Below the pieces are notes generated by a model, which worked only from the letters and a program-made list of their open reading frames with translations, made no database searches and was not told where the DNA came from. A stretch of DNA of 64,000 bases, taken from assembly GCA_964554765.1 (NCBI GenBank), contig CAZKPS010000001.1, forward strand, positions 72,786 through 136,785, given 5' to 3'. The first letter of the stretch is position 1. Each line of letters begins with the position of its first letter. Positions 5,463-63,708 of the stretch are shown piece after piece. The DNA is from an uncultured Candidatus Saccharibacteria bacterium. GTDB lineage: Bacteria > Patescibacteriota > Minisyncoccia > Phycocordibacterales > CAIRYW01. Both the position numbers and the translations under genes were made by a program.

Positions 5463-5490
5463 TTGACAAAATAGAGTGATTTGCTACAAT
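5463..5490 (+). promoter_or_regulatory. Sigma-70-like promoter (TTGACA-16-TACAAT) for a leaderless TrmB-family gene
   Basis: The -10 element ends about 8 nt before the ATG at 5499. Confidence 0.35.
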
Positions 5491-7600: not shown

Positions 7601-8359
7601 CTATTTGCCCGATGTGGATGCCACTATTTGCTCAAACTCTTTGGGTTTTAGACTCGCTCGTCCCATCAGAAATCCTGCAATACCTCCGGCAAGCATTATT
7701 TCTTTGGCACTTTTACCATCAACAGACCCTCCATAGACAATACGGACACCCTCAGCTATTTTAGGCCCGAACATTTCTGTTAACACCTTTTTTATAAAAA
7801 TCGCAGACTCTGCTACATCAGCTGGATTCATAGGACCTGAACTCTTCTTGCCGATAGCCCACACGGGTTCATATGCAATCACACACTTTTTGATATTGTT
7901 CTTAGTGATACCCTGAAGAGAGTCAACGAGCTGCCATTTAATTTCTTGCCAATGTTCTGCACTTTGATTTCGCTCCTTCTCACCTATACAGATAATCGGA
8001 TTTATTTTTGATGCGAGACTAACTATCACCTTTTTTGCTACAATCTCACTCGTCTCACCCATGGCACGCCTCTCAGAATGCCCAATGATGACATAAGTCA
8101 CTCCTAATGACGCCAACTGCCCTGCGCTTACCTCTCCTGTAAATGCACCCTCCTTTTCAAAAGATACATTCTGAGCCCCAAGTAGTGGTCTTTTTGAATT
8201 TTGGAGCAAATGACCAAAAACAAGTGGAGGACACACTACAATATCTGCAAGAGTTTTTTTACTTATCCTTTTAGTTTCCTCAATATTTTTTTTTGCATCC
8301 GCTATTTTAATCGGATTCATCTTCCAGTTGGCGATAATGATTTTTTTCATCCGGTTCAA
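7601..8359 (-). CDS. tpiA: Triosephosphate isomerase
   Basis: IANWKMN, GHSERR and AYEPVWAIG motifs. It lies upstream of pgk on the same strand (tpiA-pgk operon). Confidence 0.95.
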   Translation of the reverse strand: MNRMKKIIIANWKMNPIKIADAKKNIEETKRISKKTLADIVVCPPLVFGHLLQNSKRPLLGAQNVSFEKEGAFTGEVSAGQLASLGVTYVIIGHSERRAMGETSEIVAKKVIVSLASKINPIICIGEKERNQSAEHWQEIKWQLVDSLQGITKNNIKKCVIAYEPVWAIGKKSSGPMNPADVAESAIFIKKVLTEMFGPKIAEGVRIVYGGSVDGKSAKEIMLAGGIAGFLMGRASLKPKEFEQIVASTSGK

Positions 8360-8491
8360 AAAATATAAATAATTTCTAATGTTAGCGCATCATCACTGTT
8401 CATTTACACCCTGTTATAATATCGACTGCCCACACGCTACAATTTTCGAGCAGGATTTATCTTTCTATTCTACCCTAAAAATAATAATTTC

Positions 8492-8528
8492 AAAAATGCG
8501 CTGCGGCTACGCCGCAGCGCATTTATTC
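8492..8528. terminator. Strong rho-independent terminator at the end of the pilus-like operon
   Basis: GC-rich 10-bp stem gcgctgcggc / gccgcagcgc with T-runs on both sides. Confidence 0.65.
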
Positions 8529-8561
8529 TATATACATAATTCCATATTCAATATTCTAACT

Positions 8562-10442: not shown

Positions 10443-10451
10443 AGAAATATA

Positions 10452-10967
10452 TTAATGATAATAACCTCGAAGCACTGCTGTACCATAAAACTTTTCGCTT
10501 ACATCTGGTGTAGAAGTTGGACCTTCCATCACTATCTCATATTTGATCGCTTGTGATGTTGTGGTGGACATAATTTTAAAATGGAGAGATGTCACCTGCA
10601 TATTTGAGAGTGTGACAGGTCCAGTTGTAACACCATTATCATCAACCATGACACGGTCCCCTGCTCTATAAAACCTACTTGTTCGTGTACTTCCGCCAGA
10701 CGTTGGTATAGTTAGCGTCAACTCATCATTGTCATATGGATAGCTCGTGACAAGAGAGGCACTAGATGCAGCCCGAATTTCTCTGACGATCTTATCACTA
10801 AATGCTATTGAGGAATTTTCTACTCTTCTTGTTGCTTTAACCACACTATTTGCAGTCAAAAGCATATTAATCACTGTAGTAATAACACCCACCAGAAGAG
10901 CCATAAGTGATACATATATGATAGTCTCAATCAAAGAATAACCTTTTTTAGCTTCTACTGATTTCAT
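10452..10967 (-). CDS. Type IV pilin-like protein (prepilin-type N-terminal domain)
   Basis: KKGYSLIETIIYVSLMALL is a class III signal peptide with Gly-1 and Glu+5. Confidence 0.7.
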   Translation of the reverse strand: MKSVEAKKGYSLIETIIYVSLMALLVGVITTVINMLLTANSVVKATRRVENSSIAFSDKIVREIRAASSASLVTSYPYDNDELTLTIPTSGGSTRTSRFYRAGDRVMVDDNGVTTGPVTLSNMQVTSLHFKIMSTTTSQAIKYEIVMEGPTSTPDVSEKFYGTAVLRGYYH

Positions 10968-11464
10968 TAATTATTGAATATATTAAATAGGTAAGTTTCA
11001 CCTGATTTCGTTGTTGTTGATACACCTTCCTTCCACGATACAGTAATCAATGCTTTTCGACTGTTATTATCAGTCGTCCCTCCACTTGTTACCACATTAA
11101 AATTGTTATCACGAGACACTGCTGATAAAACAAAGTCTATTTGATATCGGTTTTCGAGCTCAATATTTGTTGTTGTGGCAGTCCAAGTACCTGACCCTAC
11201 TGTAGAATCCCAATAGAGATGATACGTAGATCCAAGAGTAAGCGAAGCGATATTTGCCGTGTAACCAGAATCTCGAAGATAGTGTAGAACCTCAACCCCC
11301 TCTTCGACTAACTGTGTCGCCTTGAGTGCTCGCACATTTGAAAGTGAATATCGTGCAACGGCACTATATACAGAGACAAGTGTAAAAAGTGTCAGTGATA
11401 TAATACTTGAGGCAATAATTACCTCAATCATACTGAATCCCCTTTTTTTATTTTTAATATTCAT
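10967..11464 (-). CDS. Type IV pilin-like protein (prepilin-type N-terminal domain)
   Basis: KRGFSMIEVIIASSII prepilin motif. Start and stop overlap the neighbouring genes. Confidence 0.7.
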   Translation of the reverse strand: MNIKNKKRGFSMIEVIIASSIISLTLFTLVSVYSAVARYSLSNVRALKATQLVEEGVEVLHYLRDSGYTANIASLTLGSTYHLYWDSTVGSGTWTATTTNIELENRYQIDFVLSAVSRDNNFNVVTSGGTTDNNSRKALITVSWKEGVSTTTKSGETYLFNIFNN

Positions 11465-11497
11465 TTTTTAGTTATAACCCGTTACCTCTGACCCTAA

Positions 11498-11956
11498 TTA
11501 TTGTATATCAATAACTCCCGTTGCGTAAATAGTGATAGTCTTTGTTTTAGTCCCATCGGCCGATGTCACCGTTATTGTACCTGTCTTACTTGCAGCACCT
11601 GTTAGTTTATTAAAGTACAAACTAGTGGCACCTCCTGTAAGTGTTATGGCACTGATATTTGACTTCCCTGAGACATCGTATGATGTCTCGATATTAGAGA
11701 CATTGTAGGTAGTTGTTTTGAATACTGTCACCTTTTTTGTTTCAAAGAATACACCATGTTCCAAAGAATTAACTGAGTTTATAGATTCTGTTTTTGCCTT
11801 ATCAATATACGAAACAATATTTGACACATCTTTATCAAGCGAGATTGAATTCGCAAGTCCTGAAAATACTGAGACAGATGCAGCTCCAAGTACTCCAAGA
11901 ATAGCGATACTCATAAGAATCTCTATTATTGTTATTCCTTTATTTTTTGATTTCAT
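11498..11956 (-). CDS. Type IV pilin (probable major pilin)
   Basis: KGITIIEILMSIAILGVLGA prepilin motif, 152 aa, directly downstream of pilC. Confidence 0.7.
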   Translation of the reverse strand: MKSKNKGITIIEILMSIAILGVLGAASVSVFSGLANSISLDKDVSNIVSYIDKAKTESINSVNSLEHGVFFETKKVTVFKTTTYNVSNIETSYDVSGKSNISAITLTGGATSLYFNKLTGAASKTGTITVTSADGTKTKTITIYATGVIDIQ

Positions 11957-11971
11957 TACTACTCAAATGGA

Positions 11972-13174
11972 CTAAATATTATTAAGCACAGTATACATCG
12001 GTGTAATCATAGATACCGCAAAAAAACCCACCGAAAGCCCTATAATCACCATCAAAAAAGGCTCGATAATCGTAGACATATTTTTTGTCTTTTGATCCAC
12101 CTCATCCTCATAATATGTAGCAACTTCTTTCAACATAGTAGAAAGATTACCTGTCTCCTCTCCCACTGATACCATTTCCACTATAAAAGCAGGGTAAAGA
12201 TTTGGGTATTTTGAAATAACATCAGACATTGGCATTCCCTTTTCTATTACCGCAACAACCCTTTCTAACACTTCTTTATAATATGAGTTTTGCATAACCT
12301 CCTTAGTTATTTCTGCAGAACGAATAACAGGCACTCCGGCTGAGAGTAGTGAAGCAAGTGTTCTGGATGTTCTTGCGGTATTCATCTCTTTAGCAATATC
12401 CTTGATAAGAGGTGCATGCAAAACAATAAAATCCATTACTCTTTTACCCTTCTTTGTCTTCAAAGAACTAGAGAGGGATATGACAAGAAAGACAATAATC
12501 GCAATAAATATAAAGTAGTGATTTTGAAGAAAGTCAGAAACATTGATCACAAACTGTGTTGATGCAGGTAATTCTGCATGAAGTTCCTTGAATGTACCAG
12601 TAAGCGATGGTACAACAAATGTAAGCATCAAAATCCCGATCACTACCATAAGCGAAAGAATAATGGCTGGATAAATCAATGCACCTTTTACCCTCTTATA
12701 CAATGTATTTGCCTTTTCCATCTGACTCCCGACAATTTTTAGAGACTCAGCCAATGAACCGGACTCCTCTCCTGCCTTTACCATCGCCACAAACAGATCG
12801 TTAAAAACATCAGGGAATTCCTGCATAGCCTCGTGTAGAGTTCTGCCTTCAGCAACAGATGTTTCAAGTCTGTTTAAAACAGTTTTGAGCTTCTTGTTTT
12901 TTGCTTGCTTTTCCATTACCTGTATTGAACGAGAAAGAGAAAGTCCGGCAGCAAGCATCGAACCCAAATTTCGTGCAAAGAAAATTTTTTCAGATGTTTT
13001 CACTTTGCCATTCAAAAATGGAATATTAATATCTCTTGATTTTTCTTCAGTGATTGTAAGTGGTGTAATATTTTCCTTTTTAAGCATCCGAAAGAGCATA
13101 TATCTATCAGACGCCTCGAACATTCGTTCGCTGGTTCCCCCTTCTGCAGTTGTAAATGTTATTTTATATTGCAT
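11972..13174 (-). CDS. pilC: Type IV pilus / T2SS platform protein PilC (GspF family)
   Basis: 400 aa with duplicated GspF domains and three TM segments (LIYPAIIL..., [12 protein letters not shown]...). Confidence 0.85.
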
Positions 13175-13255
13175 TCTTAAATACTGATTAAAGATTTAAG
13201 ATGTATGATTTAAGAATTATTCATAAATCCTAAATCATATATCTTAATTCCTTCA

Positions 13256-15007
13256 TTATTCTGATATAACTCGAAGAACCTCTTCTATCACAGTAAAACC
13301 CTTTACCGCCTTTACGATTCCGTCTTCAATCATTGTAAGCATCCCTTCTTTCTTCGCCTGTTCTTCAATATCATCAGATGTACCACCTTTCATAATAATA
13401 GTTCTGATTGTAGGTGTTACCTTGAGCACTTCATGAATACCTATTCGACTGTGGAAACCATCAGGATGATCAGATGTTATGTTCGGCTTCCAAAATGGAA
13501 CCTTATCCCATGTATCATTTTGGTCTACTATATTTTCTTTCTTCAACACTTCAAGAATTTTATTGAGATTGACTTTTTTACCAAGCACAGCCTGCTCATC
13601 TTTTGTGAGATAGAACTTTTCTTTTGGTTCAAATAGTCTTCGAACAAGTCTTTGTCCGATAATTACATTGAGTGTAGATACGAGAAGAAAAGGTTCAGCG
13701 TGCATATCAAGAAGTCGAGGGATGGCTCCAGCAGCAGAGTTTGTGTGAAGTGTAGAAAGCACAAGATGTCCTGTAAGTGCAGCATTGATAGCGAGAGACG
13801 CTGTCTCATTATCTCGAATCTCTCCCACCATAATCACATCAGGATCTTGTCGCACAAGTGACCGAAGACCTGACGAGAACGTAAATCCAATTTCAGGCTT
13901 TACTTGAGTCTGATTAACACGCTTCATTTGATATTCTACTGGATCTTCGATAGTAGAAATATTTACATCAGGGGTATTTAGAATATCGAGTACAGTGTAG
14001 AGTGTTGTCGATTTACCCGATCCTGTAGGACCTGTAGTAAGTATCATTCCAGTTGTAAGTTTTGTTGCCTCATGAAGTTGCTCGAGAGCATCCCCGTGAA
14101 ATCCGAGCGACTCAAGTGTAAACCCAGATACACCTTCACGAAGCAATCGCATAACAGTCTTTTCACCAAAATATGTAGGAAGAATCGAAACTCGAAACGC
14201 AACTTTCTCGCCATTTAGATCTATCTTAAATCGTCCATCCTGTGGAAGTCGTTTTTCATCGAGTTTCAGGTTTGAGAGCACCTTGAGACGTGCTGTTATA
14301 CCTGCTCCCGCATTCTTTGGAAGAACCATTGCGTCATGGAGGAGTCCATCGATTCGATACCTAATCACTACTTCATTCTCATATTGTTCAATATGAATAT
14401 CGGATGCATCTTGTAGGATCGCATGCTTGAGCAACGTATCAACGATTCGGACCACTGGCAAATCTTCTGCCATCTTCTTCAAATCATCAGCATTTTGCTG
14501 TCCATCCGCTTCAGTAATTGCAGTGATATTAGCCGACTCTTTTTGAATAAGATCACCGAAATCTGCCTTAAGTGACTTTTGATACTGTAGAAGTACCGTC
14601 TTTATGGATTCAGTAGTAGTAAGACGAGGTAAAATCTTGAGACCAGTCTTCTTCTTGATAAAATCAATAGCATTTAGATCGCCAATATCGAGCATTGCTA
14701 TTTCAAGACCATTCTGTCCCTTTTTATAGGCAACAATATTATGTTTACGAGCAATTGGTTCTGGTACAAGTGACAAAACATCAAAATCAATCTTGAGACC
14801 GCTACCAAGATCAACAAATGGAATACCGAGTATGTATGCACTAATTCTTCGAAGATCATCTTCTGTAATCTTGCCGTTCGAAACAAGAAACTCTCCGAGT
14901 GGTTGCTTCTTTTCTTCTGCATCTTGCTTTGCTTTTGTGAGAGTAGCCTTATCAACAAGACCAGCATCCAGAACAAAATCCTCAAGTTGTTTATCTTTAA
15001 GTATCAT
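13256..15007 (-). CDS. pilB: Type IV pilus assembly ATPase PilB (GspE family)
   Basis: 583 aa with an N-terminal MshEN/T2SSE_N domain, Walker A (GPTGSGKSTT) and His box. Confidence 0.9.
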   Translation of the reverse strand: MILKDKQLEDFVLDAGLVDKATLTKAKQDAEEKKQPLGEFLVSNGKITEDDLRRISAYILGIPFVDLGSGLKIDFDVLSLVPEPIARKHNIVAYKKGQNGLEIAMLDIGDLNAIDFIKKKTGLKILPRLTTTESIKTVLLQYQKSLKADFGDLIQKESANITAITEADGQQNADDLKKMAEDLPVVRIVDTLLKHAILQDASDIHIEQYENEVVIRYRIDGLLHDAMVLPKNAGAGITARLKVLSNLKLDEKRLPQDGRFKIDLNGEKVAFRVSILPTYFGEKTVMRLLREGVSGFTLESLGFHGDALEQLHEATKLTTGMILTTGPTGSGKSTTLYTVLDILNTPDVNISTIEDPVEYQMKRVNQTQVKPEIGFTFSSGLRSLVRQDPDVIMVGEIRDNETASLAINAALTGHLVLSTLHTNSAAGAIPRLLDMHAEPFLLVSTLNVIIGQRLVRRLFEPKEKFYLTKDEQAVLGKKVNLNKILEVLKKENIVDQNDTWDKVPFWKPNITSDHPDGFHSRIGIHEVLKVTPTIRTIIMKGGTSDDIEEQAKKEGMLTMIEDGIVKAVKGFTVIEEVLRVISE

Positions 15008-21713: not shown

Positions 21714-22745
21714 CTACTTCTGACTTTGAGACTCTAAAAACTTAAACACCTCTTCCTTGATAAGCACCTCTTCTACGAAAGCCACGATTCTCTCCTTTGG
21801 AGTTCCTGGATACTGAGCTTCCATTGCATCTGATTCTCTTTCAATATCCTCTTTCTTTGCATCAATCTTTTCTGTTTTTGCAATATCGAGAAGTATAAGC
21901 TCATTCTGTACTCGTTCTTTTGCTTTATCTTTCCATTCTGCTCGGATTTCCTCATCAGTCTTTTTTGCATCTTTCTTGTACTGTTCGAGAGTCACACCCA
22001 TCCGTGAGAGATGATGTGTGAATTCATTTGTCATACGATCAAGCTCGCTTTCAATAAGAATATTTGGCACTTCAACTTTAGAGTCCTTTCTGATAGCATC
22101 AAGAGTTTCGATTCGAGCTTTTTCTTTTGCCTTGTATTCCTTTTCTTTCTTGAGATTATCCATTACTTTCACCTTGAAATCAGCCATATCTTTGAAGTCC
22201 CCGAGAGTTTTTACAAAAGCATCATCAATCACTACATCACCATGATCGTGGTTATCATGATCGTGTCCGTGCTCAGAGTGGAATTTGTGAGCCTTGAGTT
22301 CCTCAAGCACTTTGTTGTATTCATCTTCTGTTACCTCATCAATCTTCTCTGTTTTTGTTTTTGATGCAATCTTCTTGTAGTCAGCAAGTTTAATCTCTGG
22401 AAGTACCGCAGTTGTGACAGTCACTTCAAATGGAGATCCTTTTGCAATCTTTGTGATGACAACTTTTGGATTCCCGATAGCCTTGATTTCTTTTTCTTTC
22501 AAAACCATTGGATATACTTCGTTAATCGCGAGTTCACCTGCTTCTTCAAGCACTGTGATCTCCCCTACCTTCTCAACAAGTGTCTTTTCTGGGATATGTC
22601 CCTTTCGGAAACCATCCATAGTAATACTATCGTTAATAGTCTGAATAGCTTTTGACCATTTCTTCTCGATAGTCTCGACAGCGATTTCAAGATGGATTTC
22701 CACCTCTGATCCTTCCTTCTTTTCAACTTTTTTAACTGTATACAT
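21714..22745 (-). CDS. tig: Trigger factor, short form (appears to lack the FKBP/PPIase domain)
   Basis: 343 aa. It has the ribosome-binding signature GFRKGHIP in the N-domain and a C-terminal chaperone-arm-like region. There is no FKBP-type segment. A His-rich insertion reads HKFHSEHGHDHDNHDHGD. Confidence 0.8.
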   Translation of the reverse strand: MYTVKKVEKKEGSEVEIHLEIAVETIEKKWSKAIQTINDSITMDGFRKGHIPEKTLVEKVGEITVLEEAGELAINEVYPMVLKEKEIKAIGNPKVVITKIAKGSPFEVTVTTAVLPEIKLADYKKIASKTKTEKIDEVTEDEYNKVLEELKAHKFHSEHGHDHDNHDHGDVVIDDAFVKTLGDFKDMADFKVKVMDNLKKEKEYKAKEKARIETLDAIRKDSKVEVPNILIESELDRMTNEFTHHLSRMGVTLEQYKKDAKKTDEEIRAEWKDKAKERVQNELILLDIAKTEKIDAKKEDIERESDAMEAQYPGTPKERIVAFVEEVLIKEEVFKFLESQSQK

Positions 22746-23861: not shown

Positions 23862-24593
23862 TTATTTTCTAGAATTTTGCCACAGGTATGCAAATATCTT
23901 TCGGAATGCATCAGAAATAATTTTGTTCTTAAGAATCATTCCCATCGGCTCCTTTTTATCAAAAGCCACAATTGCAAGCTTATCGTCAAAAATATTAATC
24001 TCAATCCCCAGATCCTTGAACACATCGGAGAATCTCATATCACGAAGAAGCTCTTTAGCTCGAGTTTTATCTCTCTTGCCATATTTATCCATCGGAAGCA
24101 AACTCTTGACCGATACCCCAGCTTTCACTCGATACGGAAAATAATCTTCATCAAAAAAATCATTCATAGTCTCATATGCTTTTTGATAGTCAGTGATAGC
24201 GAGGATATGCTTCTCATTATTCTCTCTCCAAGTCTCACCGTAGAGTTTCTTTACCGCCTCTTTCCCTTCAAAATACCGAATACCCGAATGTAGTACTGGA
24301 TACTTTTTCTTTTTGAACACCCCTCTAAGTTTTTCCGATTCTTCCTCGAGAGATTTTATCTTTCTTTTAGACCACACCTCAAACTCCTCCTCCGAAATAG
24401 ATTGAAAAAGTGTCGTATCATTTTTCTTGATCTGACTTACAAGCCCCTTCTCTTCGAGAAGAGTGAGCGTGTGATAAAGTGCTGTTCGATTGAGACTCGT
24501 GTCCTTGGCGATCTGGGATACGGGAGATGGTCCGAAACTTGCGAGAGCTTCAAACACCGCTCTCTCCTTTTCACTCATGAGTTCGTTATTCAT
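23862..24593 (-). CDS. TrmB-family transcriptional regulator
   Basis: N-terminal wHTH (VFEALASFGPSPVSQIAKDTSLNRTALYHTLTLLEEKGLV), C-terminal domain. Confidence 0.7.
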   Translation of the reverse strand: MNNELMSEKERAVFEALASFGPSPVSQIAKDTSLNRTALYHTLTLLEEKGLVSQIKKNDTTLFQSISEEEFEVWSKRKIKSLEEESEKLRGVFKKKKYPVLHSGIRYFEGKEAVKKLYGETWRENNEKHILAITDYQKAYETMNDFFDEDYFPYRVKAGVSVKSLLPMDKYGKRDKTRAKELLRDMRFSDVFKDLGIEINIFDDKLAIVAFDKKEPMGMILKNKIISDAFRKIFAYLWQNSRK

Positions 24594-26741: not shown

Positions 26742-27170
26742 CTATGATCGATACTCTCTATACCTGATTGCCTTCTGATGACCTTTGCACTTTAGGTCAA
26801 AGGTTTTATTGTGACCAAAAGGAGATGTATACACCTCAACATTTGGCAGCAATTCGTGCGCAGATGAAACAATCTGTTTCGAAAGTTCAAGAGCAACATC
26901 GGGTGGGGCATAGCTGTGGGATATGTGCCCAAAAGCAGCAATGACCAATCGCATTGCACCGAGCTCAAAGAAAAATTTTTGTACATCCTTGAGTAATCGT
27001 TTTTTCTGTTTTTCTCCATCACCTTCCTCTACGTGAAAGAGGACAACCAAACATTCCTCGACCAGGAGTGATGAATTTTCAGGTGATATGATTTCGGGTG
27101 CTTGAATATATTCCGAAGAACTAACCCAAGAAAAACCAAAGCTTAAAGCGTCAAAAAACTGTGCCTTCAT
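26742..27170 (-). CDS. Stand-alone archaeal-type ThrRS editing-domain / DTD2-like D-aminoacyl-tRNA deacylase homolog
   Basis: Starting from MKAQFF (142 aa), the C-terminus reads SPFGHNKTFDLKCKGHQKAI and the middle reads LVVLFHVEEGD...AAFGHISHS. This resembles the archaeal ThrRS N-terminal editing domain (...APFGYYKAFKISCKGHP...). The 5' extension in the track ORF is discounted. Confidence 0.55.
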   Translation of the reverse strand: MKAQFFDALSFGFSWVSSSEYIQAPEIISPENSSLLVEECLVVLFHVEEGDGEKQKKRLLKDVQKFFFELGAMRLVIAAFGHISHSYAPPDVALELSKQIVSSAHELLPNVEVYTSPFGHNKTFDLKCKGHQKAIRYREYRS

Positions 27171-27479
27171 AGTGATAAGTGTGTTTAAAAGAACATATTC
27201 TGTAGAGGTACAGAAATAAAAAACCCTCCGGATCGCTCCGAAGGGTTTTGTGCCTTTAACAAAGATATCATTCGCAATAAAGCAAAAAACCGTTCGGAGC
27301 GATAAAACCAACGGCTTGCCACCACTTTGTGTTCTGAATATTGAATTTGCTTATTTTTTGAATCATTTGATTTTGTGTTTTGATTTCCTTATATCCCTCA
27401 TTAGTATTCACCCTTCAAATCAAAACTTATTTATGATATTATCACCATACTAGTATAGTAATACATAAAAGTCAAATCT

Positions 27480-29133: not shown

Positions 29134-29931
29134 TTATTTTTCCTCAGTTTTACCGTCCAACCTTTTCGCCTCTTTCCACGCTAGTTCAAAAAGTTTTTTG
29201 AGAGCATCAGCAATCTCTTCACTTTCTATAATAATACCAAGCTCCTCTCTCCAGGATGCAATCATCACTTTGTTATCATAAATTTCTATATCAGGAGAAA
29301 TGTCAAAAAGTTCTTTTGGTACAAGAGCGAGCTCTCGAGCCTCAAACGGATTCATCTTTTTTCGCTCAAGTGCCAACTCTGTTGCAGGAACAATACCCCG
29401 AACAAACAAACCCTTCGCCGCCCGTCTCCTGTAATAGTCAGGAAAATATCCTTTGAGAGTTTTGTGCATATCATCATAGGAAGCCATTGCCACAAAAGGT
29501 CCAGATGCAGTCAAGGTATCTTCATATACTTTTTTCATTCCCTCAATACCTTCATAAAATTTTACTTGTGGCCGAGTACCGACTTTATACATGGACTTAA
29601 GCTCGGGCAATAGTAATTGTGCATACCTATAGTCCTCTTCTTTTCGCTCAATATTGTGACGCAGAAATTTTAATATCTGTTCAGGATCCTCACATCGATA
29701 CTCTTGTTTTGGTTCTTTCCCAGAAATACTCACAAGACCCTTTTGTGCCAGGCTTGCCAAAATATCGTAGGCACCCGTTCTATTAATACCAGCCCTTTTT
29801 GCAATCTCACTTACTTTACCTTTTCCTATCCCTAAGAATGAAATGTAGAGCTCAGACTCTTTTTTGTTGAGACCCAGCTTTTGTAAAGCGTTTTGAAAAG
29901 TTCCACTCTGACCTTCTTCGTATTTTGTCAT
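29134..29931 (-). CDS. TrmB-family transcriptional regulator (close paralog of 62920..63708)
   Basis: wHTH (SEIAKRAGINRTGAYDILASLAQKGLVSISGKEPKQEYR). The C-terminal IYDNKVMIASWREELGIIIESEEIADALKKLFELAW is shared with the paralog. Confidence 0.75.
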   Translation of the reverse strand: MTKYEEGQSGTFQNALQKLGLNKKESELYISFLGIGKGKVSEIAKRAGINRTGAYDILASLAQKGLVSISGKEPKQEYRCEDPEQILKFLRHNIERKEEDYRYAQLLLPELKSMYKVGTRPQVKFYEGIEGMKKVYEDTLTASGPFVAMASYDDMHKTLKGYFPDYYRRRAAKGLFVRGIVPATELALERKKMNPFEARELALVPKELFDISPDIEIYDNKVMIASWREELGIIIESEEIADALKKLFELAWKEAKRLDGKTEEK

Positions 29932-31443: not shown

Positions 31444-32241
31444 TTATTCGTATTTCGTTCCTGTCCAACTCAATTCAAAAATCATCTTCATAAGTCCGTG
31501 AATTGTTGGATCTTCGATAATGACTCCTGTTAACTTTTCTTTACCGAGGTTTATGATCGAAACATTTTTTTCACCATAGATTGTAATCTCGGCCTTGTAG
31601 GGGAATTTCTCTGCCGGGATGAATCGTGCATTAGGCATCAATTCTTCTTTGAAATCACCGTACGATCTCTCAACAAAGGTCTTGTCTATGTTTGTATCTG
31701 GGAAAATAACTCTTGAACTAATTCCTTTCTGTTTCTTTGTCTTAATATAATTTCTAAAAAAGTCTCTCGGCACCTGTTCCTCCACCTCTTGAACATTCGC
31801 CCACGCGAGCATTTCATATGGCTTCGATACATTAATATGTGTTGCATAAATATCAAGCACACCCTCAATACCTTCATAATACGTAATCTTTGGTTTATCG
31901 GCCGCTCCCAATAACCCCTCGAGATCAGGAAGAATCCTCTGGACATTCTCAATCTCATCTTGGATGATAGACATTTTGGATTTGGCATACCGCACGAGCT
32001 TGGTTGGACTCTCGAGTTGATAGAATTGTTTATTCTTCTTTTCTATCTCATTCACTACCCCCTTTACTGACATTTGGGTGAGCAACATATAGACCGTACT
32101 TCGATTAAGTCCAGTGTATTCTGCAATCTTTGACGGATATGCTCCTCCGAGCTCAAGGAGTGCTACATATATTAAAGACTCTTTGTCAGAGAGACCTGAC
32201 TTTTGGAGCTTTTTGAGGAGATTTTCGTGTTTTATGCTCAT
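31444..32241 (-). CDS. TrmB-family transcriptional regulator
   Basis: wHTH (IYVALLELGGAYPSKIAEYTGLNRSTVYMLL) plus a C-terminal domain. Confidence 0.75.
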   Translation of the reverse strand: MSIKHENLLKKLQKSGLSDKESLIYVALLELGGAYPSKIAEYTGLNRSTVYMLLTQMSVKGVVNEIEKKNKQFYQLESPTKLVRYAKSKMSIIQDEIENVQRILPDLEGLLGAADKPKITYYEGIEGVLDIYATHINVSKPYEMLAWANVQEVEEQVPRDFFRNYIKTKKQKGISSRVIFPDTNIDKTFVERSYGDFKEELMPNARFIPAEKFPYKAEITIYGEKNVSIINLGKEKLTGVIIEDPTIHGLMKMIFELSWTGTKYE

Positions 32242-35335: not shown

Positions 35336-36865
35336 ATGTCATTAAAATTAGTATTTCTACTCCTGGCAGTCGCAGGGGTGGCAGGAATAGCACTCGGATA
35401 TGTGCTCCGAATGCTTATTGCGTTAAGCAAAAAAGGCACAGCAGAACATTATATAAAGGAGGTTACACTCAAGGCTACTGAAGAGGCAAAGAAGATTACA
35501 CTCAAAGCCGAAGAAGAAGCTGCAGAGGTACTCAAAGGTGTTCGAGAAGAATTGAAAGAAAAAGAAGACAAGATCAAGAAAACAGAAGATCGACTTATTT
35601 CAAAGGAAGATCTTCTCGACAAACGACAAACAGATATCGACAAAGAGGTCGAGGCAATGAAACAAAGAATCCAAGAACTCCGAGAGAAAAAGGAGAGGAT
35701 TGATGCGATGGAGGCACAAAAACTTGAAGAGCTCCAAAAAGTAGCTCGACTCACAGAAGAAGAAGCAAGACAAAGACTTATTGCAACAGTAGAGCAGAAT
35801 GCAGAAGAGGATTTGATTGTTCGGATGAAGAAACTTGAGACAAGTGCAAACGAGACTTTGGAGCGAAAAGCAAAGGAGATTCTCACCATGTCTATCCAAA
35901 GACTTGCTAACTCTGTAAGTCCAGATATATTCATCACGTCTGTGCCAATTCAATCAGATGAACTCAAAGGAAAAATAATCGGTAAAGAAGGACGAAACAT
36001 CAAAGCATTCGAACGAGAAACAGGAGTAGAAGTCATCATTGATGATACTCCAGGTGCTATCACCATCTCATGTTTTGATCCTGTGCGACGTGCTGTAGCA
36101 AAACTCGCACTTGAGAGTCTCCTCCTTGATGGACGTATTCAACCTGCAAAAATCGAAAAGGAAGTCGAAAAAGCAAAAGCAGACATCAACAAAATAATTA
36201 AGGAGAAAGGTGAGCAAGCAGCACTCGAATGTGGAGTGTTCAATCTTGATCCACGAATCCTCGCAATCCTTGGACGACTTTATTTCCGAACAAGCTATGG
36301 ACAAAATGTTCTCCAACACTCTATCGAGATGACGCACATCGCAGGGATGATTGCACAGGAACTCGGTGCAGATGTGGCTGTTGCAAAAGCAGGCGCACTC
36401 ACTCACGATATTGGTAAAGCATTGGATCATGAAGTACAAGGTACTCACGTTGAAATCGGACGAAGAATTCTTCAGAAGTTTGGTGCGAATGAAGCAATCG
36501 TTAAAGCAATGGAAGCCCACCATGAAGAATATCCATACGAAACTCTCGAATCACGAATCGTTCAAGCCGCTGACTCAATTTCAGGCTCACGACCTGGAGC
36601 ACGACGAGACAGTGTCGAAAACTATATCAAGCGACTTGCAGATCTCGAAGCAATTGCAAATGGATTTAGTGGAGTAGACAAGTGTTATGCTCTCCAGGCT
36701 GGACGAGAAATCCGAGTATTTGTAAGACCAAACGAGATAAATGACCTTGAGGCAACAAATATGGCTCGAGACATCGCAGTCAAAATAGAAAGTGAGCTCA
36801 AATATCCAGGAGAAATTAAGGTAACAGTTATAAGAGAGAATAAAATAGTGGAAATAGCGAGGTAA
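35336..36865 (+). CDS. rny: Ribonuclease Y
   Basis: 509 aa with an N-terminal TM helix, coiled-coil, KH domain (GKIIGKEGRNIK) and HD domain (LTHDIGK). Confidence 0.9.
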   Translation: MSLKLVFLLLAVAGVAGIALGYVLRMLIALSKKGTAEHYIKEVTLKATEEAKKITLKAEEEAAEVLKGVREELKEKEDKIKKTEDRLISKEDLLDKRQTDIDKEVEAMKQRIQELREKKERIDAMEAQKLEELQKVARLTEEEARQRLIATVEQNAEEDLIVRMKKLETSANETLERKAKEILTMSIQRLANSVSPDIFITSVPIQSDELKGKIIGKEGRNIKAFERETGVEVIIDDTPGAITISCFDPVRRAVAKLALESLLLDGRIQPAKIEKEVEKAKADINKIIKEKGEQAALECGVFNLDPRILAILGRLYFRTSYGQNVLQHSIEMTHIAGMIAQELGADVAVAKAGALTHDIGKALDHEVQGTHVEIGRRILQKFGANEAIVKAMEAHHEEYPYETLESRIVQAADSISGSRPGARRDSVENYIKRLADLEAIANGFSGVDKCYALQAGREIRVFVRPNEINDLEATNMARDIAVKIESELKYPGEIKVTVIRENKIVEIAR

Positions 36866-45046: not shown

Positions 45047-45781
45047 CTACTCACTTTTCTCCCAGAGCATCTTCCAAACCGATCTGAGACTCTCGGCAAT
45101 TGATTGATTTTTGATGATGATTCCCATCTCGTCTTTAGTTGAAAGCATCGCCACTTTATCGTCGAAGATCATAATTTCATTATTTATCCTGTGGTTTTCT
45201 GGTATCAGACGCACCTCTCTCAAAACTTCCTCCCCTTCTCTCTTATCCTGTTCCCCCACTTCACCACCTGGAGCGAATCCTCGAACCCTAATCCCCTTCT
45301 TAACCCTCTGCCTTACATAATTATCTACATACTCCCCACCAAAATACTCCTTCACCTCTTTGGAATTTGTAAAAGTCAAAATCTCTCCCTTTGATAATAA
45401 ACTTTCTTCATAGATTTGCTTAAGACCCTCCCTTGTACTGACAGTTGTGATTCTTGGCCTTTTCTCATTATTTTTATTTTTGACCAAGTCAACTAGACTC
45501 TCCTCGAGTATCCCGAGCCCCTCTTTATGTTTCTTTATCAGAATCTGAGGATTGAGCGCCCCAAAGTACATAACACCCTTCATCTTAAACCCTGACACAA
45601 TACCTCTACTCGAAAGGCGCTTCAGGACCTCAAAATTAGTAATCCGATTTAGCTTTGATTCTCTAGCAATCTGACTATTTGTTGCCGAACCGAGCCCAAG
45701 GAGTGCTAAATAAACCGCCGCCTCGTTCTCCGAGAATCCTAATCCACCAAGTTCTTTCCTGATATCAATCTGCATATTCAA
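45047..45781 (-). CDS. TrmB-family transcriptional regulator
   Basis: wHTH (AAVYLALLGLGSATNSQIARESKLNRITNFEVL). The C-terminal MGIIIKNQSIAESLRSVWKMLWE is shared with the family. Confidence 0.7.
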   Translation of the reverse strand: MNMQIDIRKELGGLGFSENEAAVYLALLGLGSATNSQIARESKLNRITNFEVLKRLSSRGIVSGFKMKGVMYFGALNPQILIKKHKEGLGILEESLVDLVKNKNNEKRPRITTVSTREGLKQIYEESLLSKGEILTFTNSKEVKEYFGGEYVDNYVRQRVKKGIRVRGFAPGGEVGEQDKREGEEVLREVRLIPENHRINNEIMIFDDKVAMLSTKDEMGIIIKNQSIAESLRSVWKMLWEKSE

Positions 45782-52150: not shown

Positions 52151-52177
52151 TTTCTATACTACATACAATATACAAAA

Positions 52178-52220
52178 TACTACATACTACATACTACATA
52201 CTACTTACTACTTCTTACTA
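52178..52220. repeat. Heptamer microsatellite, (ATACTAC)x4 followed by degenerate copies, immediately 3' of the xer stop
   Basis: Tandem atactac atactac atactac atactac ttactac ttcttac. Coordinates may be off by 1 nt. Confidence 0.55.
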
Positions 52221-53125: not shown

Positions 53126-53222
53126 ATGATAAGTATATCAAAAAATATTTTGCGACATAATATTTTTTTGATAATAAAGCATAAGGGGTATATAATTTGA
53201 ACATTAAAATAACTAGAAAAAT

Positions 53223-55481
53223 ATGCCAGATAAAATTCCACCACCAGATGAAATAAATGCAGGATCACCAGAATCTCAACCTGGGGTAGATGTTGAGACC
53301 ATTCTAGAGGAAAAAATTGCCCCTATTAGAAGTGCAATTGCTAACGGAAGACCTATTGATGTTGAAGATTACAGAGCATTTTTTGCTGCTATACCTGACA
53401 AAGGCACCGTAAGCGATGATGATTATGAAATTGCAAGGGAATACGCAGAAAATCTCTTGAAGCTTTTTCGTAGTGAGAATGTCGAGATTAAGATATCGGA
53501 TACTCAAACTAAGAAATTTAATGAGCTTGAAAAGGAGCGTAAGGAACGAGAGGAAAAGCAGAAGGAAGATCTTGAAAATTTTCTAGAGCTTAAGAGAGAA
53601 ATAACTGGTTATATTCATAACAACCAATTTATTCCTTTTGCTCTCGCAGTAAAAGCAGAATCATTACTAGAAGATATTCCAGAGGAGGAAAGGGATGAAT
53701 TCGATATATTGATGAATCAAGACAAGGTAAGAATCATTCAAAAAAGTAATAGTCGACAAATCACTTGGAATGACTTCTTGATTAGAAATTCGCCAGAGAT
53801 GATTGAGATGAAAGAACTCATAACAAAACTTCAAGAGATAGTTAATGATAAAAATCCAAATCCAATTCCCGTTGAATATCTGGAAAGTCTTCATGAATTT
53901 TTAAAGACAGATGATGATCGTGTTGTATCTCTGCTTTTGCGCAACCAGATCCTTTCTGGTATGAAAAATGCAACAAAGAAAAAACCAATCTTGGTCACCT
54001 TAGCTGATGGAAATACAGTAGAAGTAAAATCTGATGTATTTGACTCGGCTGATAAATTACCAAAGCCAGAAACTCCTGCCCCAGCAAAAATCGAGCCCAC
54101 TCCAGCTGCTACACCTGAACCAACCCCTGCTACTGCAAAAGTCACAGCCTCTTCAACAGCATCTGTTGCAGAAGCACCAGTCAAACCAGAAGCTACACCA
54201 GCAGTAGAGCCTCCTCTCAAGATAGACCCAGAAACATATAAAAGACAGCTTGCACTAGAACTTGAGTCAATTGAGATGCATACAATTGAGCACATCCTCG
54301 AGGAAATAGTAGTAGAGTTCAGTAAACTAAGTAAAAAAGATAAAGAAGTATTTAAAGAGCTTCTAGAAAAAATATCTCCTTCTTCTCACGATAATCACGG
54401 AGACCACCACGAAGAAGAGCACGATACTCATCATAACGAACATGATAGTGGACATACGCACAGTACAGAACACGAGAAATCTCCTGCAGAACTCGCAGAG
54501 ATAGTAAGTGGATTCCTAAAAAAACTTGAGTCCAGTGATGAGCTTGAGATGAGTGATGCAACACGTCAATCACTCAAAGGTATGTTCTACAATCTCAGAG
54601 TAGAGGTAAGAAAAGCAGAAATAAAAGCATTAGATGAAGAAAAACTATTCAAAGATGACAAAGAGAAACTGAAAATATTTGAAGCAATTTCAAAATCAAA
54701 AAGGGAAAGTGAAGCGGCATATAATGATGAAATAAATATAATAGAGTCAAGACTTGATGAAGTGGAAGGTGACGAAAACATTCAGGATAGCTACCGCATT
54801 ATTTTACTTAGAGAGAAATTCATAAAAATCTTCGAGTACAACAAGAAGATGCGTGACTTCCTATCTAGAGAAATTGAGGAGCTGCGAAAAGCTCTCGAGG
54901 AGAAGAAAGCTGAACTCGAAGAAAAAATCAGAATCCGAGATGCGGCAGAAGAAGAGATGAGAGAAGCTGTCCGAAGCGGTGATAAGGAAAGAATCAAATC
55001 TACTACAGAAGTCTACAAAAAAGCACAGAAAGATGTTGATGAATTGGAAATAATTGTTCATGGATTGCAACTCAAAGTAAATGGTAAAGTCGCAGTACTT
55101 GAATCAGTAACACACAAGATTGAGGAAATAGAAGGAAAAAAGGCGGATATAGAAAAAAGTGACGACTTAGCAGAGGTTAGAGAAATAATTGAGGAAGTAG
55201 AAAAACTTTCAAAAGAAATCGACCACGAGTTAAAACCAGGTTTGCACGGAGATCATGGACACGAGCACGGACATCACCATGATGAGCCAAAGAAATCTCT
55301 ATTTAAATCGACAGTGACGTGGAGTCTCGTAGGTGGAGGGTTATTAATAGGGTTGTTCAATATTTTTGCAACAAATCTCTACAATACACTTCGAGGAGTA
55401 AAGGCAAGCGGAGGAGGAGGTGGTGGTCATGGTGGAGGACATGGAGGTGGCCACGGGCACGGTGGAGGCGGACACCATTAA
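53223..55481 (+). CDS. His-rich coiled-coil protein with a C-terminal TM anchor and a Gly/His tail (function unknown)
   Basis: 752 aa with long Glu/Lys coiled-coil segments, a Pro/Ala/Thr linker and three His clusters (HDNHGDHHEEEHDTHHNEHDSGHTH; HGDHGHEHGHHHDE; GGGHGGGHGGGHGHGGGGHH). There is a single TM helix near the C-terminus. Confidence 0.6.
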   Translation: MPDKIPPPDEINAGSPESQPGVDVETILEEKIAPIRSAIANGRPIDVEDYRAFFAAIPDKGTVSDDDYEIAREYAENLLKLFRSENVEIKISDTQTKKFNELEKERKEREEKQKEDLENFLELKREITGYIHNNQFIPFALAVKAESLLEDIPEEERDEFDILMNQDKVRIIQKSNSRQITWNDFLIRNSPEMIEMKELITKLQEIVNDKNPNPIPVEYLESLHEFLKTDDDRVVSLLLRNQILSGMKNATKKKPILVTLADGNTVEVKSDVFDSADKLPKPETPAPAKIEPTPAATPEPTPATAKVTASSTASVAEAPVKPEATPAVEPPLKIDPETYKRQLALELESIEMHTIEHILEEIVVEFSKLSKKDKEVFKELLEKISPSSHDNHGDHHEEEHDTHHNEHDSGHTHSTEHEKSPAELAEIVSGFLKKLESSDELEMSDATRQSLKGMFYNLRVEVRKAEIKALDEEKLFKDDKEKLKIFEAISKSKRESEAAYNDEINIIESRLDEVEGDENIQDSYRIILLREKFIKIFEYNKKMRDFLSREIEELRKALEEKKAELEEKIRIRDAAEEEMREAVRSGDKERIKSTTEVYKKAQKDVDELEIIVHGLQLKVNGKVAVLESVTHKIEEIEGKKADIEKSDDLAEVREIIEEVEKLSKEIDHELKPGLHGDHGHEHGHHHDEPKKSLFKSTVTWSLVGGGLLIGLFNIFATNLYNTLRGVKASGGGGGGHGGGHGGGHGHGGGGHH

Positions 55482-55517: not shown

Positions 55518-55549
55518 AAGGCACGGCAGCTAAGCTGCCGTGCCTTTTG
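55518..55549 (+). terminator. Rho-independent terminator
   Basis: Hairpin ggcacggcagc-taa-gctgccgtgcc followed by TTTTGCTGT. Confidence 0.65.
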
Positions 55550-55587
55550 CTGTATTCTATATACAATATTCAATATTCGAACACGAC

Positions 55588-56740: not shown

Positions 56741-57442
56741 TTGTCGGACCACCAGAAGCTTAAAATGGTGCGTCGGACCGAAAGTCCTTCGACACGAGGA
56801 ACCCGAAAGGTTTCAGTCTTCTTTCACATCACACAATACTTGAGCCGACACTCAAAAAATCAGACTATGAAACTCAACTATTCGCCAGCCCTTTTTTGGG
56901 AACTCTACAGAGCAGGATTGTGCACAAATCTCATCTTGCAGATCAAGAAAACTCTTGGTATTGCATTTGACTTGAGTCACCTGAAGACAGCAGAAGGTAC
57001 TTTATGCTTCCAGCGAGCAGCTATTTGGACCGGACTAGGCATCAGTGTCACATTCATTGTCTTCGCTATGACAGTGGGAGTACAGAACGGTGCATGGGCT
57101 TCACTATTCATTTCTCTGTTCATTTTGGGTTTCTGCTCCTTGATTGACCCCGACGACAGACTCAAGGATATGAGAAAGGTCGAGGCTCTCGCCAAGAAAT
57201 TCTTCGACACTTTCTGTGATGGCAGAATCGATACTGAAGCAGCCAGTAACCCAGTCGAATTCATAAAGAGCGGACTTTCTCTCAAAGCAGGAAAGATAGT
57301 GGATGCAACTCCTGATAAAACCCACGCGCTCCAAACAGAATTCTCTCGCTTGGTGAACGTGGCCATGGAACTTGGTCTTGGTGATGCAGATCAGATTTAC
57401 AGAGATGCATATACTCCTGCCAAAGATGCCATGAGACCTTAA
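56741..57442 (+). CDS. Hypothetical membrane protein (likely start MKLNYSPALF at ~56867)
   Basis: Two predicted TM helices. The 5' part of the track ORF is G+C-rich and may be a leader rather than coding. Confidence 0.4.
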   Translation: MSDHQKLKMVRRTESPSTRGTRKVSVFFHITQYLSRHSKNQTMKLNYSPALFWELYRAGLCTNLILQIKKTLGIAFDLSHLKTAEGTLCFQRAAIWTGLGISVTFIVFAMTVGVQNGAWASLFISLFILGFCSLIDPDDRLKDMRKVEALAKKFFDTFCDGRIDTEAASNPVEFIKSGLSLKAGKIVDATPDKTHALQTEFSRLVNVAMELGLGDADQIYRDAYTPAKDAMRP

Positions 57443-60719: not shown

Positions 60720-61505
60720 ATGGAAAATGTATTAAAACAATTGGGTTTAAATGAAAAGGAGATTTTAGTCTATAAATCACTCTTGGAAAGAGGTGCTTCG
60801 ACATCATCTTCACTTGCAAATGTTATTGACTTGCCACGACAGACTATCTACTCAATCCTTCAAAAACTATGTGATGAAGGAGTAATTGAGAAAGGCCCGT
60901 GGAAAGGGGCACACAAATTCATTGCCGACCCAACCAATCTTTCATCAATAGTGAGATTTAGGCAGAAAAAACTTACCCAAATAGGAAATACAATTGAGGA
61001 ATTGATGCCAGAACTTCTCACAATAACAAAACTCAGAGCAAACCGAAAACCTTCGGTTCAGTATTATGATGGGGTATTTGGGTTGAAGCGTCTTTTTGAT
61101 GAGATCATTGAACAATACAAAAGAAAAGAAGATACTATGTTTCGAGGATTCGGAATTAATTATTTTGAAAATACAGACATACAAGAAATTTTAAATGATT
61201 TTGTTAGAGAGAGATATAAATATGGTATAAAAACTCACTTACTTATTGGTAAAGGGGGGAATGATTTTGGCATTACGATAGATGGATCAACAACTTTAGG
61301 AAGAGAAGTCCGTAGTATAAATATGGAAGCACAAAATGCTGGCATCTACCTAGTAGGAGATCGTATTTATTTATTTTCTTACGAGGATGATGTGGGAATT
61401 ATGATTGAACAGAAACTTATTGCACAATTATTAAAAAATATTTTCGATTTGGAGTGGGATAAGGCAAAAGAGCTTGATAAAGAAATAAGAAGATTAGAGA
61501 AGTAA
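60720..61505 (+). CDS. TrmB-family transcriptional regulator
   Basis: wHTH (ILVYKSLLERGASTSSSLANVIDLPRQTIYSILQKL). The C-terminal ...WDKAKELDKEIRRLEK is identical to 62920..63708. Confidence 0.7.
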   Translation: MENVLKQLGLNEKEILVYKSLLERGASTSSSLANVIDLPRQTIYSILQKLCDEGVIEKGPWKGAHKFIADPTNLSSIVRFRQKKLTQIGNTIEELMPELLTITKLRANRKPSVQYYDGVFGLKRLFDEIIEQYKRKEDTMFRGFGINYFENTDIQEILNDFVRERYKYGIKTHLLIGKGGNDFGITIDGSTTLGREVRSINMEAQNAGIYLVGDRIYLFSYEDDVGIMIEQKLIAQLLKNIFDLEWDKAKELDKEIRRLEK

Positions 61506-62919: not shown

Positions 62920-63708
62920 ATGGAAAACAAAGGGAATTTCGTTGGTGCCCTCATCAATATGGGTCTCCCAGAAAAGGAGGCTGCAGTTTATGTATCTCTC
63001 CTCGGGCTGGGACTTGCAACAGTAACCGAAATTGCCAATAAATCAGGAATCAATCGAACAACTGTCTACGATATCCTTTCTTCACTATCCCAGAAAGGAC
63101 TTGTGAGCATTTCGGGTAAAGAACCAAAGCAAGAATACAGATCTGAAAATCCTGATAAGCTACTAACATATCTCAAAAACGAACTTGAGCGAAAGGCTCA
63201 AAGTGTGAGGTATGCAGAGCTCATGCTTCCGGAACTTAAATCAATACACAAAATAGGTGAAAGACCTCGAATCAAATTTTATGAAGGTGAGGAAGGTTTG
63301 CGAGAAGTATACGAAGACACTCTCACATCAGAAGAAACTATTTTGGCATATGCCGCAGTGGATGATGTGAACAAAGGGATTGCAAATTATTTCCCCAAAT
63401 ACTATAAAAGACGCGCTGCAAAAAACATTCCTATCCGTGCTATATTTCCCGATACTCCCGTGGCAAGAGAACGATCGGACCTTGATAAAGAGGAGAGGCG
63501 GGAAAGTCTTTTGGTGCCATTTGAAAAATACAGCTTTACTCCCGAAATAAATATCTATGACAACAAAGTTATGATCGCATCGTGGAGAGAAAAGCTTGGA
63601 ATAATTATTGAAAGCGCCGAGATTGCAGATGCCATGAAAAAAATATTTGAACTCTCATGGGATAAGGCAAAAGAGCTTGATAAAGAAATAAGAAGATTAG
63701 AGAAGTAA
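62920..63708 (+). CDS. TrmB-family transcriptional regulator (close paralog of 29134..29931)
   Basis: wHTH (AAVYVSLLGLGLATVTEIANKSGINRTTVYDILSSLSQKGLVSISGKEPKQEYR). The C-terminus is identical to 60720..61505. Confidence 0.75.
   Translation: MENKGNFVGALINMGLPEKEAAVYVSLLGLGLATVTEIANKSGINRTTVYDILSSLSQKGLVSISGKEPKQEYRSENPDKLLTYLKNELERKAQSVRYAELMLPELKSIHKIGERPRIKFYEGEEGLREVYEDTLTSEETILAYAAVDDVNKGIANYFPKYYKRRAAKNIPIRAIFPDTPVARERSDLDKEERRESLLVPFEKYSFTPEINIYDNKVMIASWREKLGIIIESAEIADAMKKIFELSWDKAKELDKEIRRLEK

Follow-up and report, generated by a model that had tools for sequence, protein, structure and literature searches.

ElaB, YqjD and YgaM (DUF883) are tail-anchored proteins of the bacterial inner membrane. 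We analyzed a stretch of 64,000 nucleotides from an uncultured bacterium (referred to as the window), in which an open reading frame (ORF) at 53223..55481 on the plus strand encodes a protein of 752 residues. This protein is most like a tail-anchored protein with His-rich, metal-binding, low-complexity segments. Its gene encodes an expanded member of an undescribed, fast-evolving family that is defined by its two ends. Like ElaB, YqjD and YgaM, the family has no signal peptide, a soluble helical N-terminal part, and one hydrophobic helix about 25-46 residues from the C-terminus. Unlike them, it matches no Pfam family, DUF883 included, and no sequence relationship was found. The three DUF883 proteins also lack a His cluster, a Gly/His tail and an N-terminal PP motif, and the helix of the family is much less hydrophobic than theirs. 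The window protein shows the two features of the tail-anchored class, absence of a signal peptide and a single helix close to the C-terminus, with a hydrophobicity that is marginal.

The family shares acidic, disordered His-rich segments of the HxHxH type with Hpn, the tails of SlyD and UreE, HypB and the tail of mycobacterial GroEL1. The GroEL1 tail is a documented Cu(II) ligand (PMC10170517). Tails of the SlyD, UreE, HypB and GroEL1 type sit on recognizable chaperone or GTPase domains, in genes that neighbor Ni or urease/hydrogenase genes, whereas the family has neither such a domain nor such a neighborhood. The His content of the 752-residue protein is far below that of Hpn. Assignment to the His-rich metallochaperones and stores (Hpn, HypB, SlyD, UreE, CooJ) was rejected because the protein has no Pfam or NCBIfam domain, its His content is 4.1%, and no Ni, Co or Zn enzyme or transporter genes were found among the ~45 window ORFs scanned against Pfam. 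The Gly/His tail comes nearest to shepherin I (GYGGHGGHGGHGGHGGHGGHGHGGGGHG), with near-identical composition and repeat; shepherin I ends in HGHGGGGHG and the tail of the window protein in HGHGGGGHH. At physiological pH, the imidazoles of shepherin I bind Zn(II), with up to four of them taking part, and Cu(II), with two (PMC10698721). However, shepherin I is a secreted plant antimicrobial peptide cut from a precursor, while here the similar sequence forms the C-terminal 24 residues of a membrane-type protein from a bacterium. The resemblance lies in composition and is not evidence of descent.

YgcG-type proteins have a hydrophobic helix followed by a Gly-rich C-terminal tail, and in this respect TPM/YgcG proteins (COG1512) and the family are alike. 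Membership in that group was rejected because neither the window protein nor 10 relatives contain a TPM domain (PF04536), no signal peptide is present, and the YgcG-type tail is not His-rich. One 156-residue ortholog (P0010) is labeled "uncharacterized membrane protein YgcG" by the Joint Genome Institute (JGI), a name that is most likely a low-complexity artefact. Short members of the family (subfamily B) sit at a conserved position in type IV secretion system (T4SS) clusters, as do the PrgI/VirB3-like, TrsD and VirB2-like membrane components, but no homology links the family to PrgI, TrsD, VirB2 or any other T4SS component on the published list. A coiled coil of the EzrA, DivIVA, ZipA or RNase Y type was also rejected, as there was no Pfam match and RNase Y is encoded separately at 35336-36865. 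LPXTG, GlyGly-CTERM and PEP-CTERM sorting signals were rejected because the protein lacks a signal peptide and ends in a Gly/His tail of 24 residues where such signals have a short basic cluster.

Orphan low-complexity proteins are frequent in Candidate Phyla Radiation (CPR) genomes, while the family of the 752-residue protein is sharply defined. It can be recognized by its two conserved ends, evolves far faster than its housekeeping neighbors and covers a more than six-fold range of length at one locus. Its evolutionary pattern is unusual: the ends are conserved, the middle is hypervariable and dispensable, and paralogs lie in T4SS clusters.

A family defined by its two ends

Relatives were collected by an exhaustive HMMER search over 1.84 billion representatives and by profile searches. 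The family comprises about 20 relatives of 106-932 residues. A word-indexed search found two relatives at 43-44% identity, both of which have the three His clusters as well as the linker, helix and tail. The exhaustive HMMER search added six further long forms (588-932 residues) together with short forms (156-290 residues) whose match is confined to ~90 positions at the C-terminal end of the profile. Six additional short forms of 106-159 residues came from a search with a profile of the last 95 residues; this word-indexed search was swamped by Gly-rich candidates, and the six are new members among the eight proteins that it returned. The 149-residue form recovered itself alone in a word-indexed search.

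No real match to the 752-residue protein or its relatives was obtained from Pfam, NCBIfam, PADLOC or PHROGs, and no Pfam domain was detected in the window protein or 10 relatives. The library matches (GltJ, TonB, SMC, TrlF) concern only low-complexity sequence and all fall far under the cut-offs. Sequence searches of the PDB with the 752-residue protein and with the C-terminal profile gave nothing relevant, and scans with an alignment of the three closest sequences gave nothing in GTDB genomes, JGI metagenomes or viral contigs. Such proteins were not found described in our literature searches.

All of the ~20 relatives have the His cluster that adjoins the hydrophobic helix, and all keep His residues in the tail. 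In the window protein, this HxHGHxHGH-type cluster covers residues 675-686 (HGDHGHEHGHHH), and it lies about 10-25 residues upstream of the helix. The helix itself has the family consensus GGGLFxGLFxIFxxNLYxTxR, which is Gly-rich and contains a small-xxx-small motif; residues 698-724 of the window protein (VGGGLLIGLFNIFATNLYNTLR) conform to it, including the NLYxTxR-like end. It is followed by a poly-Gly tail with spaced His residues (...GGGGGGHGGGHGGGHGHGGGGHH in the window protein), whose last two residues are HH in 19 of 20 members. All 13 aligned sequences have the same residue in two His columns, two Gly columns and at the terminal His. At the other end, the window protein has the N-terminal motif M-x(1-6)-PP-x-[D/E]. 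By eye, 13 of 20 members have PP among their first 12 residues, and a single Pro is found there in most of the rest. A mid-protein His cluster is present in seven of nine long forms. Cys is absent or nearly so across the family. The conserved, functional part of the family is its two ends, the N-terminal PP-x-[D/E] motif and the C-terminal module.

An earlier, sequence-only reading of this DNA had proposed that the His clusters bind divalent metal and had named their absence from orthologs as the observation that would speak against it. Since the clusters are kept in the relatives, with the mid-protein cluster less general than the other two, this objection does not arise.

The tail motif alone cannot define the family, because it is common in unrelated Gly-rich proteins. 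A DNA pattern for ...HGGGGHH followed by a stop codon gave at least 120 matches in metagenomes, essentially all in such proteins. These matches (L096-L215; for example L118, L126, L161 and L170) represent many unrelated proteins on high-G+C metagenome contigs. They include a group of proteins of ~780-850 residues with YSAPRS-type repeats and long Gly/Ser/His C-termini.

Gene and anatomy of the 752-residue protein

The frame 53223..55481, read from its first start (ATG) to the stop codon, gives 752 residues plus stop, just as the sequence-only reading had listed it, and the identical protein is found on three other public contigs. A consensus scan located a sigma-70-type promoter-like site at 53168..53196 (TTGATA-17-TATAAT, 11 of 12 matches), 27 nucleotides (nt) 5' of the ATG. 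Past the stop codon lies an intrinsic-terminator-like hairpin at 55518..55549 with a 13-base-pair stem, a UAA loop and a following UUUUG (-25.4 kcal/mol, z = -5.4). The consensus terminator scan had missed this hairpin because its U run is only four bases. With a promoter-like site and a terminator hairpin on its two sides, the gene looks like its own transcription unit. All of these signals are on the plus strand, as are the features described below. The idea of a junk ORF was rejected because relatives conserve the ORF, its promoter and terminator and both protein termini.

The protein contains 14.4% Glu, 10.1% Lys, 4.1% His (31 residues) and no Cys; the His content across 48 other window genes is 1.71%. 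Of the 31 His residues, 25 are confined to 65 residues of sequence, at 389-417 (11 His), 668-686 (8 His) and 736-752 (6 His). Eleven His residues within any 30 residues were never seen in 20,000 shuffles, and seven within 12 residues were seen once. The three His clusters, which had been noticed from the sequence alone, are therefore significant. So is the Pro/Ala/Thr linker borne out, at residues 279-331 (26% Pro, 23% Ala, 15% Thr), and the C-terminal tail of the (GGGH)n type, which ends in HH.

From the N-terminus, the protein begins with the motif MPDKIPPPDE (53223..53252), which agrees with the family consensus M-x(1-6)-[W/H/Y/Q]-P-P-x-[D/E]. Residues 23-274 (53289..54044) are predicted by AlphaFold2 to form a mixed alpha/beta region, which alignments show to be hypervariable among relatives. 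This region holds the most conserved block (RQITWNDFL...LLRNQILS) as well as recurring [IV]P-x-x-[LF][IV] helix-start motifs. The latter occur in two to four copies in the N-terminal halves of the long forms, with P <= 0.001 in four of nine proteins. The Pro/Ala/Thr-rich linker (54057..54215) is predicted to be disordered; it is the source of weak low-complexity matches of the TonB/GltJ type and of most weak HMMER matches. It is followed by a conserved helical segment at residues 336-384 (54228..54374; ...HTIEHILEEIV...LSKKDKEVFKELLEKI), which was recognized by alignment and AlphaFold2. A similar LS..DK..LL stretch can be seen by eye in the 189-residue form (P0024).

The first His cluster, residues 389-417 (54387..54473), is rich in Asp and Glu and predicted to be disordered. 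Residues 421-670 (54483..55232) make up a Glu/Lys-rich region of long helices with heptad-like periodicity. The periodicity exceeds the 99th percentile of shuffles at residues 342-385, 438-466, 486-518 and 521-674, and the AlphaFold2 confidence (predicted local distance difference test) is 80-95 for residues 480-670. In the monomer model the helices form an antiparallel helical bundle, not a single rod. The term coiled coil, as used in the sequence-only reading, is thus roughly right. Fold searches returned generic helical bundles only.

The second His cluster, residues 668-686 (55224..55280; HELKPGLHGDHGHEHGHHH), contains the family-wide HxHGHxHGH element and adjoins the single hydrophobic helix, residues 698-722 (55314..55388; VTWSLVGGGLLIGLFNIFATNLYNT). 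The helix has a conserved GGG / G-xxx-G motif and NLYxTxR and is the presumed membrane anchor. It is the sole hydrophobic segment of the protein, with a Kyte-Doolittle value of 1.71 over 19 residues, and there is no N-terminal hydrophobic stretch. A single C-terminal transmembrane helix had been claimed for this position. There is indeed one hydrophobic helix, but its Hessa-type sum of +2.1 kcal/mol is marginal, which makes its role as an anchor presumptive. The last 24 residues, 729-752 (55407..55478; SGGGGGGHGGGHGGGHGHGGGGHH), form the Gly/His tail with HH at the carboxyl terminus; the DNA of the tail contains a 12-nt repeat (GGTGGAGGACAT, 2.2 copies). The tail and both internal His clusters are predicted to be disordered, like the linker.

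Length polymorphism and turnover between xerC and rpsO

The window PNPase matches 80 species representatives, the best of them 93% identical. Nearly all of these matches are labeled as Patescibacteria (CPR), including Campbellbacteria, Nomurabacteria, Kaiserbacteria and Paceibacterota. The window and the loci of subfamily A, whose gene is placed between xerC and rpsO, therefore belong to the Patescibacteria (CPR, Paceibacteria-like), a placement that covers these loci and not the contigs of subfamily B.

In the window and seven related loci, the gene order is xerC (minus strand), the gene of the 752-residue type (plus strand), rpsO, a NYN gene and pnp. The eight loci share a CCA-adding enzyme gene, an exonuclease-III-like gene, an xerC-like gene, the family gene, rpsO, the NYN gene and pnp, within the reach of each contig (that of L095 stops right after the family gene, with rpsO unseen). 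The positional orthologs between xerC and rpsO have 752, 860, 821, 851, 189, 159, 156 and 149 residues. Flanking proteins are 80-98% identical to those of the window, except for the exonuclease-III-like protein (65-84%), whereas the family protein is 48% identical at best. At a locus whose XerC is 92% identical, the family protein is 27% identical over 435 residues. In the closest species representative, with a PNPase 93% identical, the family protein is reduced to 149 residues; this version replaces the 752-residue gene at L004 5797-7482 without DNA similarity, and the xerC-like gene there is inverted relative to the window. The middle of the protein, a Pro/Ala/Thr linker and helical bundle of ~600 residues, is thus optional and fast-changing.

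Among ~65 more distant Paceibacteria-like loci that include rpsO, no ORF with a Gly/His tail was found upstream of rpsO, and in most of them xerC appears to abut rpsO directly. From this absence, the gene is a clade-restricted insertion. An 844-residue ORF upstream of rpsO in a more distant genome (L024) was considered as a positional analog and rejected, as it is unrelated and has a signal peptide.

Two nearly identical contigs, L001 and L002, are 96-99.5% identical over most of the locus, including the last 1.9 kb of the gene, and 87% identical in the exonuclease-III-like gene. Over the first ~600-730 base pairs of the gene (~200 codons; L001 4611-5340 and L002 8513-9105), they gave no blastn match to each other. 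The N-terminus of one of the two alleles (P0002) resembles that of a third protein, P0004 (39%). This mosaic suggests an exchange of the N-terminal module between alleles, or else an assembly chimera. No silent cassettes or repeats able to drive variation were found in the window.

Close relatives also differ in the slot between the NYN gene and pnp. In the window, this slot contains a 233-residue ORF without a Pfam match (56741-57442, plus strand), in L004 two ORFs of 219 and 235 residues (8236-9820), and in L001 a 92-residue ORF on the other strand (8579-8857). A tandem array of the 7-nt unit ATACTAC at 52156-52218 of the window reaches just into the stop-codon end of xerC, and an AT-rich copy related to it lies at 55554-55581, in the intergenic DNA before rpsO.

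Possible functions and the genomic setting

We favor, with a probability of about 0.4, a membrane module that is tail-anchored, binds metal and carries a variable spacer. In every member there is a single hydrophobic segment, located 25-46 residues from the C-terminus and never at the N-terminus, and no signal peptide was found in any family member examined; the protein is therefore most likely tail-anchored. Its bulk and the helix-adjacent His cluster would then lie in the cytoplasm and the short Gly/His tail on the outer face. The acidic His cluster and the tail may bind divalent metal (Zn, Ni or Cu) at the membrane, judging from their chemistry only. From the conservation of the His clusters in relatives, we infer divalent-metal binding as a reasonable expectation. 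Specific packing is suggested by the conservation of the helix sequence and by its small-xxx-small motif, and the helix could pack on copies of itself or on a partner membrane protein. The middle of ~600 residues would serve as a lineage-specific spacer or interaction domain between the conserved ends and not as the functional core.

Several observations weigh against this module. The helix is marginal in all members, with Hessa-type sums of +1 to +6.5 kcal/mol and Kyte-Doolittle values of 1.1-1.95. Lys and Arg occur on both of its flanks, and the positive-inside rule does not fix its orientation. A surface-exposed protein would agree better than a cytoplasmic one with the extreme variability and the Pro/Thr-rich linker. 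What ties the family to metals is the chemistry of its His segments, not homology or experiment. Many unrelated Gly-rich proteins have Gly/His tails with the ending ...HGGGGHH, and biased composition inflates profile scores. Among the ~45 window ORFs scanned against Pfam, there was no metal transporter, metalloregulator, metallochaperone family or Ni/Zn enzyme cluster; co-occurrence with metal transporters, which had been put forward as a check on the metal reading, was thus not seen in the window.

The location of the short paralogs raises the alternative that the family is an accessory of an envelope machine, especially the T4SS of Patescibacteria, in which the helix would dock onto the VirB3/VirB6/VirB4 complex and the variable N-terminal part would recruit or recognize fast-changing partners such as host- or phage-related factors. 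Three short members (P0042, P0043 and P0044) adjoin prgI (VirB3-like) and TrsD-like genes, and a VirB4-like gene is present on the two longer of the three contigs. The same order is kept in two contigs of very different G+C content (0.36 and 0.60): a VirB6-like polytopic protein, a soluble protein of ~260 residues, the family member, the VirB3-like, TrsD-like and VirB4 proteins, a two-helix membrane protein and then a secreted protein. This type of T4SS cluster has been described for Patescibacteria (PMC12102498). The conserved helix, with a motif suggestive of specific packing, would suit a docking function, and the apparent exchange of allelic modules between L001 and L002, with the N-terminus of one allele (P0002) like that of P0004, would suit the recognition of changing partners. 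However, neither the window gene nor any of its seven positional orthologs, all located between xerC and rpsO, has a T4SS gene near it, and the window ORFs scanned against Pfam included none; the location in a T4SS cluster was found only for the three short paralogs. The published survey of Patescibacteria T4SS components lists no such protein (PMC12102498). The two short subfamilies are linked by hhalign with a probability of 99.2% over 78 columns, a score that is inflated by biased composition. We consider an accessory of an envelope machine unlikely, though the strongest of the alternatives. A PemK-type toxin gene lies near a short member and a T4SS cluster on two unrelated contigs (L084 10825-11211, minus strand; L091 2075-2467, plus strand).

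If the His clusters themselves were the function, the protein might be a cytoplasmic metal store, buffer or metallochaperone that sequesters Ni, Zn or Co as Hpn, HypB, SlyD and UreE do. Acidic HxHGHxHGH-type clusters are indeed conserved in all members, and the trigger factor of the window has a second His-rich insertion. But the capacity would be small (31 His in 752 residues, and 3-19 His per short form), no homology to any metallochaperone domain was found, no Ni/Zn enzyme, transporter or regulator gene lies nearby, and such a protein would have no need for a conserved hydrophobic helix, an N-terminal motif or an HH end. Of the divalent-metal binding or storage claimed in the sequence-only reading, binding is plausible, while storage by a protein with only 4.1% His is improbable. 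If the variable part were the function, the N-terminal part and the Pro/Thr linker might be exported by an unrecognized route, with the PP motif as signal, to give a surface-exposed, membrane-anchored fibril for host contact or phage evasion whose Lys-containing Gly/His tail stays in the cytoplasm, in a logic resembling that of the M-like proteins of Gram-positive bacteria. This would account for the extreme length polymorphism and sequence turnover at a conserved locus and for the replacement of the N-terminal module between near-identical contigs; the linker is of a kind common in wall-spanning segments, Cys is scarce throughout the family, and the tail has Lys/Arg and almost no acidic residues, while the His cluster N-terminal of the helix is acidic. 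It is a slightly poorer prospect than a metal store, as no member has a signal peptide or N-terminal hydrophobic stretch, no sortase-type or other known sorting motif was found, and there is no known bacterial route for signal-less export of an N-terminal domain of 700 residues. Least probable is a membrane-tethered cytoskeletal or cell-division scaffold built on the coiled coil and functionally like EzrA, DivIVA or ZipA, which the sequence-only reading had also offered. The long heptad-periodic helical region and the flexible linker are joined to a membrane-type helix, as such a scaffold would require. Nevertheless, close relatives (PNPase 82-93% identical where it is on the contig) have at the same locus proteins of only 149-189 residues, in which the helical region is missing altogether; neither EzrA, DivIVA, ZipA nor any Pfam family was matched, and fold searches gave generic bundles only.

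It is conceivable, but rather improbable, that a conserved metal-binding module (His cluster, GxxxG helix and Gly/His-HH tail) plugs into the T4SS or host-contact apparatus and that the N-terminal part, hypervariable and 0-750 residues long, is swapped between alleles in cassettes as part of an arms race with hosts or phages and perhaps displayed on the surface with the PP motif as export signal. Such proteins would form a new modular class of envelope proteins in episymbiotic ultra-small bacteria. Most envelope and host-interaction proteins of Patescibacteria are uncharacterized, and the group makes up a large share of bacterial diversity. In the single Patescibacteria strain tested, T4SS clusters appear to be indispensable for epibiotic growth (PMC12102498). 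If the module does bind metal at the membrane or dock onto the T4SS, it would offer a testable entry to how these cells build or tune their contact apparatus. Otherwise, the family is an orphan one, well defined but at present overlooked by annotation pipelines or given wrong names such as YgcG.

The trigger factor of the window (21714-22745, minus strand; 343 residues) does carry the His-rich segment that the sequence-only reading had pointed out. It has Trigger_N (residues 6-150) and Trigger_C (residues 187-325) domains with ~36 residues between them, including HKFHSEHGHDHDNHDHGD. The peptidyl-prolyl isomerase domain is missing, and a His/Asp-rich linker stands in its place. Extending this observation to a lineage-wide handling of metals is unsupported, as are the storage and scaffold readings of the 752-residue protein.

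The other genes of the window include those for RecJ, PGK, TIM, NusA, ClpP, RNase Y and PNPase, along with the trigger factor, as well as a type IV pilus ATPase, a platform protein and seven TrmB-like regulators, a housekeeping set that is typical for ultra-small bacteria. The type IV pilus block at 8562-15007 (minus strand) contains PilB-like (13256-15007) and PilC-like (11972-13174) genes. Three ORFs of 152-171 residues and one of 626 residues in this block have no Pfam match and could encode pilins and an adhesin. The seven TrmB-family helix-turn-helix paralogs, each of ~240-265 residues, were identified with Pfam at 5481-6260, 60720-61505 and 62920-63708 on the plus strand and at 23862-24593, 29134-29931, 31444-32241 and 45047-45781 on the minus strand, all within 64 kb of a reduced genome. 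TrmB-like genes are near pnp in related loci too. At 26742-27311 (minus strand), a free-standing protein of 189 residues matches the "archaea-specific" threonyl-tRNA synthetase editing domain PF08915 (E 4e-20) in this bacterium.

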